A stretch of DNA of 64,000 bases from Terriglobia bacterium. Its GTDB lineage: Bacteria; Acidobacteriota; Terriglobia; JAIQFV01. The stretch spans positions 376,875-440,874 of the forward strand of contig JAIQFV010000002.1 in NCBI GenBank assembly GCA_020073085.1, given 5' to 3'. Positions within the stretch are counted from its first letter, which is position 1. Every line of letters begins with the position of its first letter. The notes beneath the pieces are model-generated. The model was given only the letters and a program-made list of their open reading frames with translations, was not told the DNA's origin and searched no databases. Both the position numbers and the translations under genes were made by a program. Positions 4,404 to 61,205 of the stretch are shown here, one piece after another.

Positions 4404-4645
4404 GGTGTCAGGTATCAGGTGCCGGGTGTCAGAATGGAGCTATCAGCGATCAGCGCTCAGCTTTCAGCGGTCAGCTATCAGCTTGCAAGTTCAAAGCAGC
4501 CCTTGCAATGTCCAGCGGTTGGCTCCGGGACTGGAAGCCCGCTCTTCTAAAATATACCTCCCTAGTTTGTACAGGGGGCAGATGGCTGAGATCTGGTAGT
4601 GATCGCTGATAGCTGACGGCTGACCGCTGAAAGCTGACCGCTGCC
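4404..4645. repeat. bipartite intergenic element: inverted low-complexity arms (CAGCTATCAGC flavour) around a unique core
   Basis: Left arm about 4434-4482 (tatcagcgatcagcgctcagctttcagcggtcagctatcagc) pairs with right arm about 4597-4643 (gtagtgatcgctgatagctgacggctgaccgctgaaagctgaccgctg); fills the whole gap between convergent stops at 4403 and 4646. Confidence 0.75.
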
Positions 4646-8152: not shown

Positions 8153-8282
8153 CGATATTAATACAAACGTCTTTGAACATGTTACAAAATTGTGCATGAT
8201 TGAACGTGGGGGCGTCCGCAGCGGCGGACGCCCCTAATCCGAAAATTTCGCAATTACACCTTGTAACTCTATTTCCAACGTT
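8153..8282. repeat. about 130 bp repeat, copy 1 (contains an 11 bp-stem GC hairpin)
   Basis: About 80% identical over about 130 bp to 61073-61205, including ...aatac-aacgtc-ttgaa-atg-tacaaaat-gtgc...gattgaacgt, the hairpin GGGGCGTCCGC-agcg-GCGGACGCCCC and tgtaactcta. Confidence 0.7.
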
Positions 8283-12517: not shown

Positions 12518-12752
12518 AAGAAGTTGTCAGTTCTCGGTTCTCAGTTGTCGGTAAGAGCTTTCAGCTATCAGCCACCAGCTTTTGGCGGGAGGCTTACTGG
12601 GGGTTGTAAGCATGGTTCGAAGCAGCAATTGACCGCTGATTGGAAATCAGGTCCTTGAACAAGAAGGCGATCCTCTGGTTCGGTTGCTGATAGCTGACCG
12701 CTGATAGCCATTACTGAGAACTGACAACTGAGAACTGACAACTTACTTCAGG
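12518..12752. repeat. bipartite intergenic element (CAGTTGTCAG flavour), best-preserved example
   Basis: Left arm 12518-12579 (aagttgtcagttctcggttctcagttgtcggtaagagctttcagctatcagcc) is the near reverse complement of right arm 12684-12752; unique core about 12580-12683. Confidence 0.8.
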
Positions 12753-16904: not shown

Positions 16905-17105
16905 AGTAGAGGTGATAGGTAATAGGTTATAGGAAGAAACAGGAAACCTGACGTTGGCTGTTTGAGGAATGAAGCGAGCGTCGTTGTCTGTTGCGGAGAG
17001 TTCAACTCCCGTACCGAGCTTCTAAGACCTCTCGCCGACCTCTGTCTTTGTAGTTCATTGGGTGAAACCTAACACCAAACACCTAATACCTATCACCTCT
17101 TTCCT
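16905..17105. repeat. bipartite intergenic element (GGTGATAGG / AATAGG flavour)
   Basis: Left arm gaggtgataggtaataggttataggaagaaacaggaaacc pairs with right arm ggtgaaacctaacaccaaacacctaatacctatcacctc. Confidence 0.7.
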
Positions 17106-19083: not shown

Positions 19084-19270
19084 GGTATCAGGTGTCGGGC
19101 AAGCTGTCAGCTTTCAGCTCTCAGCCATCAGCAATCAGCTTCGGACTTATTGAATGGGTGTATCCAAAGATGAATAGGCTTCTAATTTCATGAAATCCCG
19201 TCTCATTAAGCAGCAGCTCCTCTTCCTTGTGTTATCTGACAGCTGATAGCTGATCGCTGAAAGCTGGTCT
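19084..19270. repeat. bipartite intergenic element (CAGCTATCAGC flavour)
   Basis: Left arm ggtatcaggtgtcgggcaagctgtcagctttcagctctcagccatcagcaatcagc pairs with right arm gttatctgacagctgatagctgatcgctgaaagctggtc. Confidence 0.7.
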
Positions 19271-20679: not shown

Positions 20680-20899
20680 AGGGGGAAGGGAATAGATGAT
20701 AGGGAATAGGGAATAGGTGGAGAAGCTGGCAGCAAATAGGCGATTAGGGTTAGATAATAAGTGCCATGACCTCGTGCACGAATTCTAGTGAGACGTGGTG
20801 CAGCAACGGTCAAACCATTTGAACTCCATACCTAAAACCCATTCTCACTCACCCGTCACCTACCTGCTATTTCCTATCACCTATCATCTATTCCCTCAC
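20680..20899. repeat. bipartite intergenic element (GGGAATAGG flavour)
   Basis: Left arm gggaagggaatagatgatagggaatagggaataggtg pairs with right arm cacctacctgctatttcctatcacctatcatctattccctc. Confidence 0.75.
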
Positions 20900-24236: not shown

Positions 24237-24440
24237 AAGAGTTGTCAGTTCTCAGTTGTCGGTTCTCAGAATGCAGTAGCTAGTTCTAAGCCCTCATTTA
24301 CTGATCGGCGGGGAGAGTGAGGCACAATATCGCCAAGGTCAAGGGCTCATCGGTTACAACCAAATCTCTTGTCCTGGCCTTTGCTGACAACTGGGAACTG
24401 ACAACTGAGAACTGCTTTCCGGCAACTGAGGACTGACAAC
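24237..24440. repeat. bipartite intergenic element (CAGTTGTCAG flavour)
   Basis: Left arm gttgtcagttctcagttgtcggttctcag pairs with right arm ctgacaactgggaactgacaactgagaactg...gactgacaac; lies between the rlmI-like stop and the Hsp20 promoter. Confidence 0.75.
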
Positions 24441-29581: not shown

Positions 29582-29882
29582 AACGAAGGGATTCAAGTTA
29601 TATCAGCTGCAAATCGGCCGCGCCGGCGCCGAGATCAGACCTTACCCGGTCGCCAGGAAGCCGGAGGATGCGTCAGCGGGGAAAACTCCGCCGCGGCGGG
29701 ATCATCAGGTTCCCTTCGGAATGCGGGTTTGTAACTTCCTGTGTTCCTGGTCGCCTAATCCAGGGTTTGTCTTTGCCATGATCGGCACAAGTTTTGTTGA
29801 TACGGGGTTACTGGGAGACCTTTACACGGCCTTTGTGGCGAATTTGGAAGATGTTTCACAAGGGTACCGCGCCGTTTTTCCC

Positions 29883-43489: not shown

Positions 43490-43675
43490 AGTTGCCAGTT
43501 GCCAGTTTTCAGTTGTCAGTGGGAAGGTGCAAGAGTCGGCGGCCGGAAGACGGGAACCGGAAGCCAGAAGTCAGAGGTCAGAAACAAAAGGCGTGGAATT
43601 GTAGACTTTGAACTTTGAACCTGGAACTTTGAACCGGGGTTTCAGGACTTTGAACTTGAAACTTTGAACTGTTCT
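43490..43675. repeat. low-complexity intergenic block (GTTGCCAGTT, GGAAG/CCAGAAG and CTTTGAAC motif runs)
   Basis: Three different simple-motif runs fill the gap between convergent stops; arms are not clearly complementary. Confidence 0.6.
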
Positions 43676-50556: not shown

Positions 50557-50780
50557 CAAGTCTTAAAATCCAAAATCCAAATTCCAAAATCCAAACAAAA
50601 CCCAAAAAGAACAAATTCCAAGAGGCAGAAGACCGACAATCCAGTGAGGGCATTAACGGAAAAATGCCGCTTCACCTGTTGTCACGGTTTTGTGCTGTTC
50701 CGTCTAAGATTTGTTATTTGGGGTTTGAGAACTTGCTGGGCAATTAATACTTGTTTGGAATTTGGTATTTGGATTTTCCG
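50557..50780. repeat. bipartite intergenic element (AAATCCAAAATCC / TTTGGAATTTGG flavour)
   Basis: Left arm cttaaaatccaaaatccaaattccaaaatccaaac pairs with right arm ttgtttggaatttggtatttggattttcc. Confidence 0.7.
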
Positions 50781-52510: not shown

Positions 52511-52735
52511 CAGGTAATAGGGGATAGGTTTTAGGTGATAGGGAACAGGTTCCAGGCAATAGGGAAACAAGACGAGCGATCAATCCTCGGGACCAATAAC
52601 TCAGCCCGAACGATCAGTCGACGGCACATCTCTTGCATCGTTCCCCCAAGCCACCCCTGCCACCGATCATCAATTACCTACTACCTATTCCCTACTACCT
52701 ACCACCTATTTCCTATCACCTACTACCCATCCCTA
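52511..52735. repeat. bipartite intergenic element (GGTAATAGG / AATAGG flavour) between sdhA and sdhC
   Basis: Left arm ggtaataggggataggttttaggtgatagggaacagg pairs with right arm cctactacctattccctactacctaccacctatttcctatcacc. Confidence 0.75.
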
Positions 52736-54448
52736 ATACTTCCTCTCCACCGGTTTCCAGTTGGTAATCGTCACGGGCTTGTATTCCAGCCGCGGCTTAC
52801 CACCGGTGCAATACACCATGGAATGTGCCAGGAACTTTTCATCATCACGCTTCGAGAAATCCGTCCGGGAATGGGCCCCGCGGGATTCCTGGCGTGCCTG
52901 ACCGGCGAAGAGCAGCACCTCCGCCAACTCGAGCATGTTTTCAGTTTCCAATGCCTGGATGAGGTTGGTGTTGTAGATGCGGGTCTTGTCCTGGATGGAA
53001 ATCTTTCGAAAGCGTTGCCTCAGATCGGCAATCTTGTCCAGGCCTTCCTTCATGGAGTCGCCGGTGCGGTAAACCCCGGCGTGCTTGTCCATCAGTGTCC
53101 GAAGTTCACGGCGGATGAGGGCCGGGTTCTCCGTTCCACTTTGTTTGAGCAGACCATCAAAAACGCGGCTCTCTTCTTCCCGGACTTTGGCCTCCGGCAT
53201 CGCACTCAGCGTGGTGCCTTTGGTCAGGAACTTTGATATTTCACCTCCGGTAATGCCGCCCCACACAAGGCATTCGGCCGTGGAATTGCATCCCAGACGG
53301 TTGGCGCCGTGCATGGAGTGGCACGCCACCTCCCCGGCCGCCCAGATGTTCTCCACCTTGGTCTGGCCGTTGATGTCGGCCTCGATCCCTCCCATGGCAT
53401 AGTGGGCCACGGGCCGGATCGGGATGGGCTGAGTGATGGGGTCGATTCCCAGAAATTTCATACACACTTCACGGATCAGCGGGAGGCGGTGGTTGATGCG
53501 GTCGGCGCCAAGGTGGGTCATATCGAGGTTAATATAATCGAGCCCCTCGGGTCCCGGAAAACCGCGTCCCTCGAGAATTTCCGTCATCTCCGATCGCGAC
53601 ACGATATCGCGGGGCGCCAGTTCCATCATCTTGGGCGCATACTTTTCCATAAACCGCTCACCCTTGTTGTTGCGCAGGTAGCCGCCTTCCCCGCGACACC
53701 CCTCCGTCATCAGGATGCCCGAGGGCACCAATCCGGTCGGGTGAAACTGCAGAAACTCCGGATCTTCCAGGGGCAGGCCGGCGCGGAAGGCGATGGCCTG
53801 TCCGTCACCCGTGACGGTTTGGGAATAGGTCGTGAACCCATAGAGGTTCCCCAGGCCTCCGGAAGCGAACAGGAGCGCCTTTCCGCGCAAAACGTAGAAC
53901 TCACCGGTCGGGGCATCGAAAAGCGTGAGGCCGGCAAACCGACCGCCCTCGAGGAGCATCGCCGTGACGAAACACTCGTCGTAGCGCTTGAAGTTGTTGT
54001 ACTTGACCAGGGTGTCATAGAGGGCCTGCATTTCCATGAAGCCGGTCTTGTCGGCGGCCATGCAAGCGCGCGGGAAAGAATGCCCGCCAAACGGACGCTG
54101 CATGATCCGCCCGTCGTCGCGGCGTGACCAGGGGACCCCCCAATGCTCCAGGCGCCGGATCTCATCCGGCGAAGTCCTGACAAACCGATCCACCGTGTCC
54201 TGGTCCGCCAGGAAATCGGCGCCTTTGACCGTGTCCCAGGCGTGCAGCTCGAGGCTGTCTCCTTCCTCGGGGCGCATCATCGCAGCGGTGCCCCCTTCGG
54301 CACACACCGAATGCGAGCGCATGATCTGGACCTTCGACACGATTCCGATGTCGGCTTTGCCCTGCGTTCGAATGCAGATTTCCACGGCGGCGCGCAGTCC
54401 GGCCAGCCCGGTGCCCAGGATTAGTACATCATGAGTTATTTGTTGCAT
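52733..54448 (-). CDS. sdhA: succinate dehydrogenase / fumarate reductase flavoprotein subunit
   Basis: FAD-binding GxGxxG ([14 protein letters not shown]), covalent-FAD His region ([10 protein letters not shown]), conserved catalytic blocks. Confidence 0.95.
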
Positions 54449-54597
54449 GCTCCATTGACTCCTTGGAATAGCGGAGGGAGGGTCCTTCAGGGTCTGCGGG
54501 TATGAAGTGAAGCCTCCTCGTTAATGCGCGATCTGCGTACGCAGTGCGCGCCCTCAATTGCCGGATATCATATCACAAGTTTTTGTTTTCGGAAGAG

Positions 54598-54815
54598 TCC
54601 AATAAAACAAATTCCAGAATCCAATATCCAAAGTCCAAATAAAAACCAAATTCCAATGCACAAACTCCAAGGGAAGCCGATTCGCAATGCTTATATTTCG
54701 GTTCCCTTAAGGGCTTCACAGATGGTGGCCGGTCGTACCCATTCCTTCGTTTTAAGTGTTTTGAATTTGGTCCTTGGAATTTATTTGGACTTTGGATATT
54801 GGATTTTGGAATTTC
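54598..54815. repeat. bipartite intergenic element (TCCAATATCCAAAG / TTTGGATATTGGA flavour)
   Basis: Left arm tccaataaaacaaattccagaatccaatatccaaagtccaaataaa pairs with right arm ttatttggactttggatattggattttggaatttcc; immediately followed by the tandem array. Confidence 0.75.
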
Positions 54816-55250
54816 CACCGATGGGATGTTCAAAATTCAGACTGAAGGTGGCGGGTTTGGAATTTGTTTATTGGGATTTGGTTCTTATTTGGGTTTTGGA
54901 GTTTGGAATTTGGATTTTCCGCCAATGGGATGTTCAAAATTCAGACTGAAGGTGGCGGGTTTGGAATTTGCTTATTGGGATTTGGTTCTTATTTGGATTT
55001 TGGAGTTTGGAATTTGGATTTTCCGCCGATGGGATGTTCAAAGTTTGGACTGAAGGTGGCGGGTTTGGAATTTGCTTGCTGGAATTTGGATTTTGGAGTT
55101 TGGAATTTGGATTTTCCGCCGATGGGATGTTCAAAATTCAGACTGAAGGTGGCGGGTTTGGAATTTGCTTGCTGGAATTTGGATTTTGGAGTTTGGAATT
55201 TGGATTTTCCGCCGATGGGATGTTCAAAATTCAGACTGAAGGTGGCGGGT
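54816..55250. repeat. tandem array: five copies of a 36 bp core at 93-104 bp spacing
   Basis: Core GATGGGATGTTCAAAATTCAGACTGAAGGTGGCGGG recurs at about 54820, 54924, 55028, 55121 and 55214; inter-core sequence is low-complexity TTTGGAATTTGG...GGATTTTCC and nearly identical between units. Confidence 0.85.
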
Positions 55251-55257
55251 AGGCGGC

Positions 55258-56031
55258 TCAGGGTAGCTGTTGCTTCAAGGCGGCAATGAAATCACCCAAC
55301 TCTTTAGGGTTGAGATCGGAGACTGCCCAGTAAGTCATTTTTGACTTCGCCCAGTGGACCACATGGTAACCCTTTTGTGAGAGGGCTGTTTCGGTCGCGT
55401 TCGCATCCTCGGGCGACGGCCAAATGAACAAATTGATAAAATGTTGCCGTCGCTGATAGATTAGGGCAGCCACCGGTTTTCCGCCGAGGTAGTCGATGCG
55501 GCCTCCGATGAGGCGAAATCCGTGGTCTGCCAGGTCGACGACGGTGGGTGAGAAATCAACCTTTCCGTTGAACCAGGGCTTCACCGTATGCTGATCGGAG
55601 GAGGGCACATCGGTCAAATGGCTGAGCATCAGCGAACGAACATGGCTGTCGATGATCTCCTGGGTCAGGATCTCGTCAGCGGACTGTCTGGAAAAGTGCG
55701 GCGCCACATTCCATGTGATTAATGCAACCAGCACGAGAGAGGCCGCCACACTCGCCCACCGCAGGGGCGACCACCCTCCCGACAGCCATACGCGGCGCCC
55801 TGAAGGCGATTTGCCACGGATTGTATCCTGAACGCGGTGATGCAGGGTGCCGGGTGCCTTGAAGTAAAGGGAATTGGAGCCGAGCACGGACCGCAATTCT
55901 TGCAGTTTCTGGTATTCGGTGGAACACGCCGAACACTCTTGAAGGTGCGCCTCGACCTCAACACTTCTGACGAGGTCAAGTTCGCCGTCAAGATAGCCCT
56001 CGAGGAGGGGTTGTACTTCCTTGCAGCTCAA
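55258..56031 (-). CDS. anti-sigma factor (zinc-finger type, transmembrane)
   Basis: N-terminal HxxxCxxC zinc-binding anti-sigma motif (VEVEAHLQECSACS), TM helix, periplasmic domain; directly follows the ECF sigma gene. Confidence 0.7.
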   Translation of the reverse strand: MSCKEVQPLLEGYLDGELDLVRSVEVEAHLQECSACSTEYQKLQELRSVLGSNSLYFKAPGTLHHRVQDTIRGKSPSGRRVWLSGGWSPLRWASVAASLVLVALITWNVAPHFSRQSADEILTQEIIDSHVRSLMLSHLTDVPSSDQHTVKPWFNGKVDFSPTVVDLADHGFRLIGGRIDYLGGKPVAALIYQRRQHFINLFIWPSPEDANATETALSQKGYHVVHWAKSKMTYWAVSDLNPKELGDFIAALKQQLP

Positions 56032-56554: not shown

Positions 56555-56725
56555 CGGCAGCGATTCGCTTTCCGTCTCCTACACCTTCGTAGGCTAAGAC
56601 TGGATTGGATGTGATTTTATTCCCACCTTCAGAATAACACGATTTATGGGAATATTCGTGGACTTCCAAGAGTTTAGGTCGCTGAAGAGAGCAAGAAAGG
56701 GATTTGAAGTTAAAAGGAGAAACCC

Positions 56726-57727
56726 ATGAAATCATCACTGAATCGACGATCCTTTATGAAAGTGGCCGGCGCCTCCTTAGGGGTGGGGGCGATGTACCGG
56801 ATCGTTCCGACGTGGGGAAAAGACAAAGAGGGACAAGAGATGGCCCGATTGCTGGGGAAGGCCAATGGTGAATCGGTCTCCCCCTTTTCTTTTGTTCAAC
56901 TGAGCGATACCCATGTCGGGTTCAGCGGGCCTCCGGACCCGCTGGGCACGAAGGCCTTCGAACTCGCCGTTGAGAAAGTCAACCAGTTGCCTGAAAAGCC
57001 GGAGCTGGTTCTTTTCACCGGTGATTTGACTCACGACAGTGAGAATCCGGAAGAGCATGCGAACCGGATGAGGCTCTTTCAAAAGATCTCCAGCCGGCTG
57101 AACGTGGCCAAGATCAAACATGTGCCGGGCGAACATGACGCCGGACTCGATGGCGGCAAACTCTTCCACGAGTTCTTTGGCGAGAGCTCTTATTCCTTCG
57201 ATCATCGCGGCATCCACTTCATCGCGCTCGACAATGTTTCTCGCGCCAGGCCTGAAGTCGGGGAAGAGCAGCGGGCCTGGCTCAAGAAGGATGTGGCACG
57301 CTTTTCAAAGTCCTCCCCCATGGTGGTATTCACGCACCGCCCGCTGTTTGATTTGAAGCCGGAGTGGGAATGGTTCACGAGCGATGGGGATGAAGTCATG
57401 AATGTGCTGGCCCCTTATGAAAATGTCACGGTGCTGTATGGGCACATTCACCGTCAGAACAGTCAGAAGCTGGGCAATGCTACTCATTATGCGGCCCGGT
57501 CACTCATTTTTGCATTTCCCGATCCTGAAAGCGGCGCGGAGAAGAAGCCGATCCCTTTCGATAAGGATCAACCGTTCAAGAACCTGGGAATCCGGCAGAT
57601 CACGGGAAAACAGGACCAGGTTCCATCATCGGTTTCACTTTCCATCAATGACGTCGAGTTGAGCGTGCGTGAGTTCGCCGGCACGGCGGGTATTCAACAA
57701 TTCTCAAAAAAAGGAGTAAGTCTATGA
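56726..57727 (+). CDS. Tat-secreted metallophosphoesterase
   Basis: Twin-arginine signal (NRRSFMKVAGASLGVGA); calcineurin-like GDLTHD and GEHD motifs; AAAGGAG ribosome-binding site. Confidence 0.75.
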   Translation: MKSSLNRRSFMKVAGASLGVGAMYRIVPTWGKDKEGQEMARLLGKANGESVSPFSFVQLSDTHVGFSGPPDPLGTKAFELAVEKVNQLPEKPELVLFTGDLTHDSENPEEHANRMRLFQKISSRLNVAKIKHVPGEHDAGLDGGKLFHEFFGESSYSFDHRGIHFIALDNVSRARPEVGEEQRAWLKKDVARFSKSSPMVVFTHRPLFDLKPEWEWFTSDGDEVMNVLAPYENVTVLYGHIHRQNSQKLGNATHYAARSLIFAFPDPESGAEKKPIPFDKDQPFKNLGIRQITGKQDQVPSSVSLSINDVELSVREFAGTAGIQQFSKKGVSL

Positions 57728-58310: not shown

Positions 58311-58325
58311 ACCCAGTATTTTCCT

Positions 58326-58440
58326 GGATTGGAAATTGGAAAGGTCTGACCCGAGAATTGGGATTGGAAATTGGAAAGGTCTGACCCGAGAATTCTTGCT
58401 GGATTGGAAATTGGAAAGGTCTGACCCGAGAATTCTTGTT
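58326..58440. repeat. 3 x about 40 bp tandem repeat (GGATTGGAAATTGGAAAGGTCTGACCCGAGAATTCTTGCT)
   Basis: Three near-identical units at about 58326, 58361 and 58401. Confidence 0.85.
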
Positions 58441-59823: not shown

Positions 59824-59961
59824 GTGGACCTGCCTGATGATGTTGGATTGGAACAACTTGGCAATGCCGAAGAGGCTTAGGAGAGGAGTTCCTAGATTCG
59901 TCCGGACCGCCGCGCTCGCTTACTGCGTTCAATCAGAAGATTGAATTTCATACACCCCCAT

Positions 59962-60475
59962 CAGGCCCGAAGGGCTGTCAGACTGTAGCCCCACCTGAAG
60001 CTCCGTCCCGCGTTCTTTGCGGGGCGGAGCGAGGGTGGGGTGCCAGTCTCCCCAATGATATCCGAGCCCCGCTGGCGGGGCGAAAGAATCTACCGAATGG
60101 TTCTTCGGACAACCCTACAATAATCCCCTGGCATGTTCCTCTCCGCACTGCTTTCTCTACCCCACGTTACCCTTACTCGTTTCACGAATTAGTGGACCCC
60201 AATTTCACCAGTCGAATTCTCGCAACGATATCGGAACAGTCGAGTTCTTCCTGGCAGCGGGAGCGCCCTCGGAAGATCTTGTTTCAGTGAGAGTGGCGTC
60301 CTCATTCCGAGTGCATGGAATCGAATATGTCATTCGGTGTACTTCGACCTGACGACATTGTTTCGCCCCGCAAGCGGGGCTCTCACATTTTCTCACCTCG
60401 GTACCCCACCCTCGCTCTCCGCCTACGGCGGACGGAGCTTCAGGTGGGGCTACAATCTGACAGCCCTTCGGGCCT
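59962..60475. mobile_element. about 515 bp non-coding element bounded by about 85 bp near-perfect terminal inverted repeats (MITE-like or structured RNA)
   Basis: Left end ggcccgaagggctgtcagactgtagccccacctgaagctccgtcc...cggagcgagggtggggtgcc is the reverse complement of the right end (60400-60475) apart from a few mismatches and one indel; each end also folds locally; sub-terminal hairpins GCCCCGC-tgg-CGGGGC and GCCCCGC-aa-GCGGGGC; no credible ORF. Confidence 0.5.
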
Positions 60476-60658
60476 AAAGGGCCAAAAGGGTTACTCGAGA
60501 AGCATCCACTAATGGGAATCGAATCTTCCTCCGACATTGATCGTGGCCTTCAACTTTGGAATTCGGGTCAACAGCGTTTCACCTCTTTGCTCGATCCCGT
60601 TCAGGGCGACCAGGCTGGTCGCCCTACCGCAGGGGTTCCAGCAACCGCTTGTGTCCCC

Positions 60659-61072: not shown

Positions 61073-61205
61073 TCGACTAATACGAACGTCGTTGAAAATG
61101 TACAAAATCGTGCGCGATTCAACGTAGGGGCGCATAGTCCGCCGCGGCGGACGCCCCTACAGCGAAGATTCCACAACTACCCCATGTAACTCTAATTCTA
61201 ACGTG
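61073..61205. repeat. about 130 bp repeat, copy 2 (GC hairpin with 5 nt bulge)
   Basis: Aligns with 8153-8282; hairpin GGGGCG-catag-TCCGCCGC/GCGGCGGACGCCCC and shared tgtaactcta; begins about 25 bp upstream of the start codon of the 60659-61048 gene. Confidence 0.7.

Follow-up and report, generated by a model that had tools for sequence, protein, structure and literature searches.

Introduction

Mycobacterial MIRU minisatellites consist of tandem units of 40–100 bp that lie in intergenic spacers, within an operon or from one operon to the next, and are polymorphic in copy number between strains, and the units belong to a dispersed family that is present at many loci. Heptamer repeats have, to our knowledge, been on record since the 1990s and are still unexplained. 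Tandem heptamers are over-represented, for reasons that have not been explained, in cyanobacteria, Beggiatoaceae, Bacteroidetes and Xanthomonas, the described families being the cyanobacterial STRR, the TAACTGA repeats of Beggiatoaceae, Cyanobacteria and Bacteroidetes, and GGGAATC of Xanthomonas; polymerase slippage and the binding of cold-shock-type proteins have been offered as explanations (PMC4679880, PMC4692102). Neither of these two papers mentions Acidobacteria. The closest hairpin-forming extragenic repeats are REPINs (PMC3116915). REP, BIME and REPIN elements are extragenic inverted hairpin pairs that often lie past gene 3' ends and sometimes form tandem clusters, and REPs are regarded either as selfish or as having an effect on the 3' stability of mRNA (PMC3116915). 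Tandem arrays of sRNA genes are on record in cyanobacteria, in the passages of PMC4030482 that cite the work on NsiR1 (Ionescu et al, 2010).

Here we describe a tandem array upstream of sdhA in the window, that is, in the whole stretch of 64,000 nucleotides that was analyzed, which comes from an uncultured soil bacterium of the Terriglobia (Acidobacteriota). STRR-like heptanucleotide repeats have 7-nt units, fall into several families per genome, are nearly all intergenic, sometimes occur as inverted array pairs and vary rapidly in length and sequence between close relatives (PMC4679880, PMC4692102). The repeats of the window likewise show period 7 above other periods, an intergenic location, several families and fast turnover, and the CAACTGA/CTGACAA arrays among them are one base off TAACTGA. 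They differ from STRR-like repeats in that they mostly form matched inverted arms around a centre of ~100 nt, and thus hairpins, and in that one arm with an embedded clamp has been amplified into a higher-order repeat of 93–104 bp. A full-text literature search for the AAATTCC repeat string found no paper. In REPs, the sequence of one family is conserved at hundreds of loci and linked to RAYT, whereas the heptamer family and the centre are specific to each hairpin here and the core of the array occurs at only one locus in the 64 kb; an inverted doublet hairpin is formed by the heptamer element (z −6.4) and not by the core. The array resembles a minisatellite or VNTR in its head-to-tail units and in a copy number that varies between samples, as counted in short-read assemblies. 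Unlike MIRU, its unit is locus-specific and visibly derived from a heptamer hairpin arm. With NsiR1-type arrays it shares direct repeats of ~100 nt upstream of a gene, but NsiR1 repeats each have a promoter and a terminator and are conserved across species, and neither property was seen here.

A five-copy array between the anti-sigma gene and sdhA

Every gene flanking the array lies on the minus strand, in the order ECF sigma, anti-sigma, array, SdhA. The gene calls therefore bear out the placement in the preliminary description, between the end of the ECF sigma/anti-sigma operon and the start of sdhA. The genes and the putative sdhA promoter are as follows.

56554-56033, minus strand, ECF sigma gene
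56031-55258, minus strand, anti-sigma factor gene (zf-HC2), with its stop codon directly before the clamp
54567-54594, minus strand, putative sdhA promoter TTCCGA-N16-TGaTATGAT of the extended -10 type, kept in the relatives L010–L012
54448-52733, minus strand, SdhA gene, followed by SdhC, SdhD and SdhB

The putative promoter was recognized by sequence conservation directly 3' of the right arm of the hairpin described below, and a consensus sigma-70 scan did not call it. Between it and the sdhA start lies a 26-bp near-perfect palindrome, GCGCGATCTGCGTACGCAGTGCGCGC, at 54526-54551, which is kept in L010 and partly in L011 and L012 and may be an operator or a 5'-UTR hairpin.

The 36-nt core, GATGGGATGTTCAAAATTCAGACTGAAGGTGGCGGG, is present in five copies on the plus strand (54820-54855, 54924-54959, 55028-55063, 55121-55156 and 55214-55249), with 0, 1, 3, 0 and 0 mismatches in order of ascending coordinates. 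These coordinates confirm the spacing of 104, 104, 93 and 93 bp that had been claimed, and no match to the core was found in 100 dinucleotide shuffles or outside the array in the 64-kb window. TRF reported the array with a period of 93 bp, 3.8 copies and a score of 558. The five-copy array is real. The TTCAG-A-CTGAA palindrome and the CCGCC/GGCGG clamp, which had been ascribed to all copies, are each present in four of the five: copy 3 of the core reads TTTGG-A-CTGAA, and the unit adjoining the hairpin has CCACC/GGTGG in place of the clamp. The near-identity noted for the spacers holds, and their "low-complexity" character can now be specified as tandem repetition of heptamers (7 bp), with TRF rows of period 7, 14 or 21 within every spacer.

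Pairwise identity of the units ranges from 87 to 100% across the array. No difference separates the two distal units, 1 and 2 (100% identity); units 3 and 4 share 94–95% identity with them, and the proximal unit is at 87–89%. This gradient fits a stepwise and recent duplication away from the original arm, although the identity of copies could in principle come from selection and not from recency. The array is not a CRISPR, as had already been stated, because its spacers are near-identical heptamer repeats and not unique sequences; integron attC sites and plasmid iterons were also set aside on anatomy. ORFs across the repeat have no Pfam family above threshold, in agreement with their earlier dismissal as spurious.

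Each unit is a hairpin arm with an embedded clamped segment

Reading the minus strand, we excised the core from each unit and matched what was left against the reverse complement of the right arm. From the anti-sigma stop codon onward, the order is 8 nt, CCCGCC-N30-GGCGG and a CCAAA heptamer tract; this block occurs five times and is followed by a unique centre and the right arm. Each unit is a complete CCAAA-type left arm with an embedded 41-nt clamped segment, CCCGCC-N30-GGCGG, and the locus as a whole has five left arms and one right arm of the UUUGG type, with the unique centre between them. The parts are listed in the order of the minus strand.

55209-55249, minus strand, core copy 1 (distal), beginning 8 nt past the anti-sigma stop codon
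55157-55208, minus strand, left-arm copy 1 (93-type spacer), in the unit identical to unit 2
55116-55156, minus strand, core copy 2
55064-55115, minus strand, left-arm copy 2 (93-type spacer)
55023-55063, minus strand, core copy 3 with 3 substitutions, GTCCAAACTTTG, a variant also found in the independent contigs L003 and L004
54960-55022, minus strand, left-arm copy 3 (104-type spacer)
54919-54959, minus strand, core copy 4 (CATTGG variant)
54856-54918, minus strand, left-arm copy 4 (104-type spacer)
54815-54855, minus strand, core copy 5 (proximal), 41 nt, CCCGCC...GGTGG, with AAATTCCAAA on both sides
54767-54814, minus strand, proximal left (5') arm of the CCAAA type, the true partner of the right arm (pair I2; 48 nt, 88% complementary)
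54659-54766, minus strand, unique centre (apical domain), ~70% similar in L010 and unrelated in sequence in L011 and L012
54597-54658, minus strand, right (3') arm of UUUGG-type heptamers, ending in the U-rich GGAAUUUGUUUUAUUGG and used by all inverted-repeat pairs, I1-I25

An extra half-clamp, GCCGCC (55257-55252), precedes core copy 1. When the core is removed from the proximal unit, 55 of 62 positions are identical to the complement of the right arm, and AAATTCCAAA is duplicated around the core. The suggestion that the array is a satellite-like expansion of a bipartite arm was essentially right, in that the unit consists of the arm of the adjoining inverted repeat plus an embedded clamped segment.

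Left arms 1–5 gave predicted duplex energies with the right arm of −42.6, −42.6, −47.7, −45.5 and −59.6 kcal/mol, respectively, against −17 to −19 ± 4 kcal/mol for shuffled arms. The stable hairpin at 54597-54814 adjoins the array, which duplicates its arm, and the hairpin region 54590-54825 folds with an MFE of −86.7 kcal/mol (z −6.4). When the whole intergenic region is folded, the right arm is taken up by a left arm other than the proximal one. The large hairpin ends in UUUGUUUUAUU on the minus strand, and it is outside the definition used by the terminator scan.

Neither the core with its clamp (z +0.33 on the plus strand and −0.90 on the minus strand) nor whole units (z −1.0 and −0.31) gave folds better than those of dinucleotide shuffles. 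Compared with the form of an intrinsic terminator, the units have a clamp of 5 bp, a loop of 30 nt and a z-score of ~0. A consensus scan of both strands of the array for promoters and terminators found no sigma-70-type promoter and no intrinsic terminator. Rfam models matched nothing in the window at the gathering threshold and nothing in 54400-55400 at E<=1, and a scan for tRNA and tmRNA found none. Since the folds of the core and of single units are not different from those of shuffles, the idea of a structured RNA with repeated hairpins, raised in the preliminary description, was dropped.

Copy number and unit order in independent assemblies

Exact matches to the anti-sigma and SdhA proteins were found on contigs from several other samples. 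Most of these short-read contigs break within the first array units. Copy counts were taken from short-read assemblies, in which partial collapse is possible: contigs L001, L002 and L090 have two units, and L091 has at least three, including a "T93" type that is absent from the window. L003 and L004 have the order C93, V104 and then a 93-type unit, unlike the window. At least four to five distinguishable unit types (G-arm, T104', V104 and C93, with T93 elsewhere) were thus recovered independently, which rules out an artefact of a one-copy locus. Five is a minimum-confidence number, because the perfect 186-bp duplication formed by units 1 and 2 cannot be counted with 150-nt reads. The comparison across samples that had been proposed as a check accordingly showed that copy number varies, from two to at least three, and that orders differ, and it did not independently reproduce the exact number of five. 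The differing unit orders point to real polymorphism, some of which multi-k short-read assembly could create. With unit orders and counts that change from one independent assembly to another, the array has the behavior of a minisatellite whose copy number varies between samples.

In two contigs of sample ERZ27248002 (L007:2590-2750 and L091:1218-1400), array cores run directly into the interior of genes unrelated to the locus, which encode an MFS transporter and an OppD-like ABC ATPase. These joins are either chimeric assemblies or rearrangements with breakpoints in the array.

Conservation of the core and of the hairpin

The wider search for the core that had been called for covered the 64-kb window, the GTDB representative genomes and the JGI metagenomes, and it placed the core at this locus only; the two collections, neither of which contains this species, gave no match. 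The nearest relative, L010, has 95% SdhA identity and the same anti-sigma neighbor. Its orthologous region contains two left arms, each following a segment that ends in GGCGG, and the clamp is all that these core-like segments have in common with the core. In L011 and L012 (94% SdhA identity), a hairpin is found upstream of the same conserved promoter-proximal sequence of sdhA, and the core is absent. The centres of these hairpins differ (168 nt with z −10.3 and 61 nt with z −9.4, respectively). With only the clamp shared by L010 and no core in L011 and L012, the core is young and lineage-specific, and the conserved part is the hairpin.

The gene upstream of the sdhA hairpin is different and divergent in L011 (4600-4700) and L012 (4700-4800), and the left edge of the hairpin is the very point at which synteny ends. 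A hairpin between divergent genes is not solely a terminator for the gene upstream.

Heptamer hairpins in the window and across the clade

TRF detected dozens of arrays of period 7, 14 or 21 in the window, usually as oppositely oriented pairs. In a period scan, nine strong tracts had period 7 and one had period 11, against none for periods 5, 6, 8, 9 or 10. The heptamer arrays form long inverted repeats that flank unique centres of ~100–130 nt, and their families differ by locus (AGCTATC, AGTTGTC/CTGACAA, AGGTAAT and TTTGGAA). Based on rough gene calls, at least one gene 3' end lies in each of the 13 intergenic gaps with heptamer tracts, and such tracts are absent from all nine divergent gaps (p ~0.02 by our own hypergeometric estimate). 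Further elements with paired heptamer arms, one of which lies between sdhA and sdhC, were found at the following positions.

4438-4643, paired-arm heptamer element
12523-12743, paired-arm heptamer element
16910-17098, paired-arm heptamer element
19102-19266, paired-arm heptamer element
20687-20896, paired-arm heptamer element
24240-24414, paired-arm heptamer element
43490-43670, paired-arm heptamer element
50565-50606, paired-arm heptamer element
52512-52739, paired-arm heptamer element

The heptamer hairpins of the window have predicted energies of −60 to −110 kcal/mol, and several of the elements fold with z-scores of −6.4, −6.9, −7.3 and −5.6. A second higher-order tandem array was observed at 58324-58438, with three units of ~40 nt (GGATTGGAAATTGGAAAGGTCTGACCCGAGAATTCTTGCT) that are composed of heptamers and a short palindrome, GGTCTGACC, in a style like that of the main array.

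The junction of GGCGG with AAA(A/T)TCCAAA occurs in the window and also in L010 and in L012, at two different loci. At L012:2555 and L011:3338 the layout is like that of the array, with a stop codon, TCCGCC, a 37-nt loop, GGCGGA and a heptamer arm. A scan of the JGI metagenomes for GGCGGAAAWTCCAAAYTCCAAA returned 36 contigs with 34–65% GC, where ~0.5 were expected by our own estimate. Among the 35 non-redundant metagenome cases, GGCGG closes a CCGCC-N(<=8)-GGCGG hairpin in 11, against a background of 3%, and the clamp lies 8–25 nt past the stop codon of a same-strand ORF in 11. Long-period amplification like that in the window was found at none of the 36 metagenome junction loci and in none of 80 relatives (L010–L089), and hence amplification is not a routine outcome. 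The unusual feature of the locus is the amplification and not the module.

In four low-GC metagenome contigs (L094, L095, L099 and L104), GGCGG and an AAATTCC array lie within an ORF of 380–440 codons. As these arrays are inside long ORFs and not past a stop codon, heptamer arrays may be tolerated in coding sequence in some lineages.

The spacer between sdhA and sdhC was compared among the 80 relatives. It measures 12–37 nt in the more distant genomes and 100–280+ nt, with a strong period-7 signal, in about two dozen species that form a sub-clade, where it has grown from 15–18 nt. The expanded insert runs from the stop codon to a point just short of the ribosome-binding site of sdhC, and the stop codon often supplies the first letters of its heptamers (TAGGTGA TAGGCAA ...). 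Heptamer families at this site differ between species, and a z-score of −3 or below was obtained for the folds of 12 of the 15 heptamer-rich spacers. Because these spacers lengthen and change family and still fold, the heptamer hairpins behave as expansions into compact spacers whose hairpin character is kept during sequence turnover.

Origin and role of the array

The explanation that we favor is a local, minisatellite-like amplification of the core together with one arm of the heptamer hairpin, and we judge this account, taken as a whole and with the role included, to be reasonably probable. It builds on what was observed: the anatomy and pairing potential, a core that is not conserved, assemblies that differ from one another and hairpins that extend across the clade. 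The 3' end of the anti-sigma gene would already have carried one copy of a module made up of (i) a post-stop GC clamp, CCCGCC...GGCGG, enclosing ~30 nt, and (ii) a heptamer arm of the CCAAA type, which would pair with the UUUGG arm ~100 nt further on and produce a very stable hairpin immediately before the sdhA promoter. Because the 7-mers that make up the arm are nearly identical, heptamer tracts could mispair by strand slippage or recombine unequally, which would have duplicated blocks of core plus arm of 93–104 bp; such slippage or recombination is the most likely origin of the array. The outcome would be five alternative left arms that compete for a single right arm. The core would be a passenger with no sequence-specific job, and the hairpin, itself a member of a clade-wide class of intergenic hairpins with heptamer arms, most likely acts, on the transcript or on the DNA, as a barrier at the 3' end or an insulator that separates the ECF operon from sdhA; it probably serves, or is tolerated, as a structure of this kind. 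Besides the rarity of such amplification elsewhere and the divergent genes around the hairpin in L011 and L012, two further observations sit less well with the account: most other heptamer hairpins are without a U-rich tail, and the core shares the 10-mer CTGAAGGTGG with the highly conserved promoter region of the ECF sigma gene, which could hint at a function of the core.

We weighed five other explanations, taken here in falling order of plausibility. The number of left arms could pick the hairpin that forms, in the transcript of the ECF operon or in DNA, and thereby tune read-through into sdhA, or its promoter, in the manner of phase variation. The five mutually exclusive pairings are of similar strength, copy number and order differ between samples, and the array lies directly upstream of the putative promoter, all of which would suit such a copy-number switch; yet every alternative uses the same right arm and 3' tail, which leaves the 3' end of the structure unchanged, and relatives manage with one or two arms, so that we consider a switch unlikely. 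We are more skeptical that the 41-nt core is a tiny insertion element, on the lines of the small dispersed repeats of cyanobacteria or of REP-type palindromes, that entered the heptamer arm with a target duplication and was later amplified with it. The AAATTCCAAA copies on both sides of the core and the restoration of the arm upon its removal would agree with an insertion, but flanking direct repeats are expected anyway within a tandem repeat. The bare palindrome TCCGCCGCGGCGGA occurs within heptamer arms of L010 and L012 and recurs in the window, and L013 has TCCGCC-N8-GGCGGA in an arm. However, no second locus of the core was found in the 64 kb, the GTDB representatives or the JGI metagenomes, and pairs of TCCGCC...GGCGGA are not enriched over control clamps (16 vs 7–48), for which reason such a mini-element is kept only as a low-probability rival. 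At the corresponding position past the stop codon, moreover, L010 already carries a large-looped clamp, which makes the arrangement ancestral and not a fresh insertion.

An array of binding sites for a regulator had been among the first suggestions; such a regulator could, for instance, belong with the adjoining ECF sigma/anti-sigma pair or control sdh. Five near-identical 36-nt sites upstream of sdhA would be in keeping with it, as would the single other copy of CTGAAGGTGG in the window, at 56623-56632 in the upstream region of the ECF sigma gene (0.11 expected per window). That copy is on the opposite strand relative to the genes and the sites lie 250–650 bp from the promoter; the core is not kept in L010, even though the ECF promoter region is 96% identical there, and is absent in L011 and L012. 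Binding sites are therefore a very doubtful explanation, and the link to the ECF promoter through the shared 10-mer was set aside because the 10-mer is on the wrong strand and is not kept in L010. Tandem sRNA genes or a repeated structured RNA of the NsiR1 kind, with each unit transcribed by itself, would match the ~100-nt tandem units, in which a clamped stem is followed by UUUGGAAUUUG on the plus strand, and there is the cyanobacterial precedent cited in PMC4030482. The consensus scan for promoters and terminators on both strands was negative, though, core and unit fold like their shuffles (z +0.33, −0.90, −1.0 and −0.31), Rfam gave nothing at E<=1 and the core is not conserved in relatives, all of which makes this reading highly improbable. 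We give least credence to an assembly artefact of a locus that is truly single-copy. The perfect 186-bp duplication of units 1 and 2, the breaks of most short-read contigs in the array and the two copies in L001 and L002 could be read in its favor, but at least four distinguishable unit types were recovered independently from several samples, and L010, which comes from another study, also carries a duplicated module.

The amplification account leaves room for a broader reading of the Terriglobia heptamer hairpins, which we regard as rather unlikely. They would constitute a self-regenerating, clade-wide element with arms that change in concert, seeded by the clamp past stop codons and under a selected role, and the array would have been caught in mid-process. 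Slippage with hairpin-templated correction and a generating process that is dedicated or at least specific are details of the same reading and share its tentative standing; the clamp module itself is also seen in unrelated metagenomic lineages. If it were true, the selected role might concern, for example, mRNA 3' ends or segmental stability inside operons, such as between sdhA and sdhC. The array by itself is a hypervariable marker for strain typing and a trap for short-read assembly. The genome-wide system of heptamer hairpins is more interesting than the array, with an uncultured clade of soil acidobacteria filling its compact spacers, even in the sdh operon, with stable and species-specific 7-mer hairpins. 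The same junction hairpin in about two dozen species, with full sequence turnover, provides a natural test bed for whether such hairpins are selected, for instance for mRNA end formation or insulation, or self-generated.

Other repeats in the window

The upstream region of the ECF sigma gene (56555-56740, minus strand) is 96% identical to L010:3000-3196, and the sigma coding DNA is 90.8% identical. The palindrome TCCGCCGCGGCGGA was observed at 8215-8228, 29687-29700 and 61138-61151, and also at L001:882; for its 12-mer, ~0.004 occurrences are expected per 64 kb. The copies at 8215 and 61138 sit at the apex of a larger REP-like palindrome, GT(A/G)GGGGCG...CGCCCCTA; they have a common flank of ~100 nt and lie in two divergent intergenic regions. 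A strongly structured non-coding gap at 59857-60658 (MFE −362 kcal/mol, z ~−11.6) is without heptamers and had no Rfam match. Inverted copies of ~95 nt (~59958-60050 and ~60395-60480) flank ~340 nt within it, and on this ground the element looks MITE- or IS-like.
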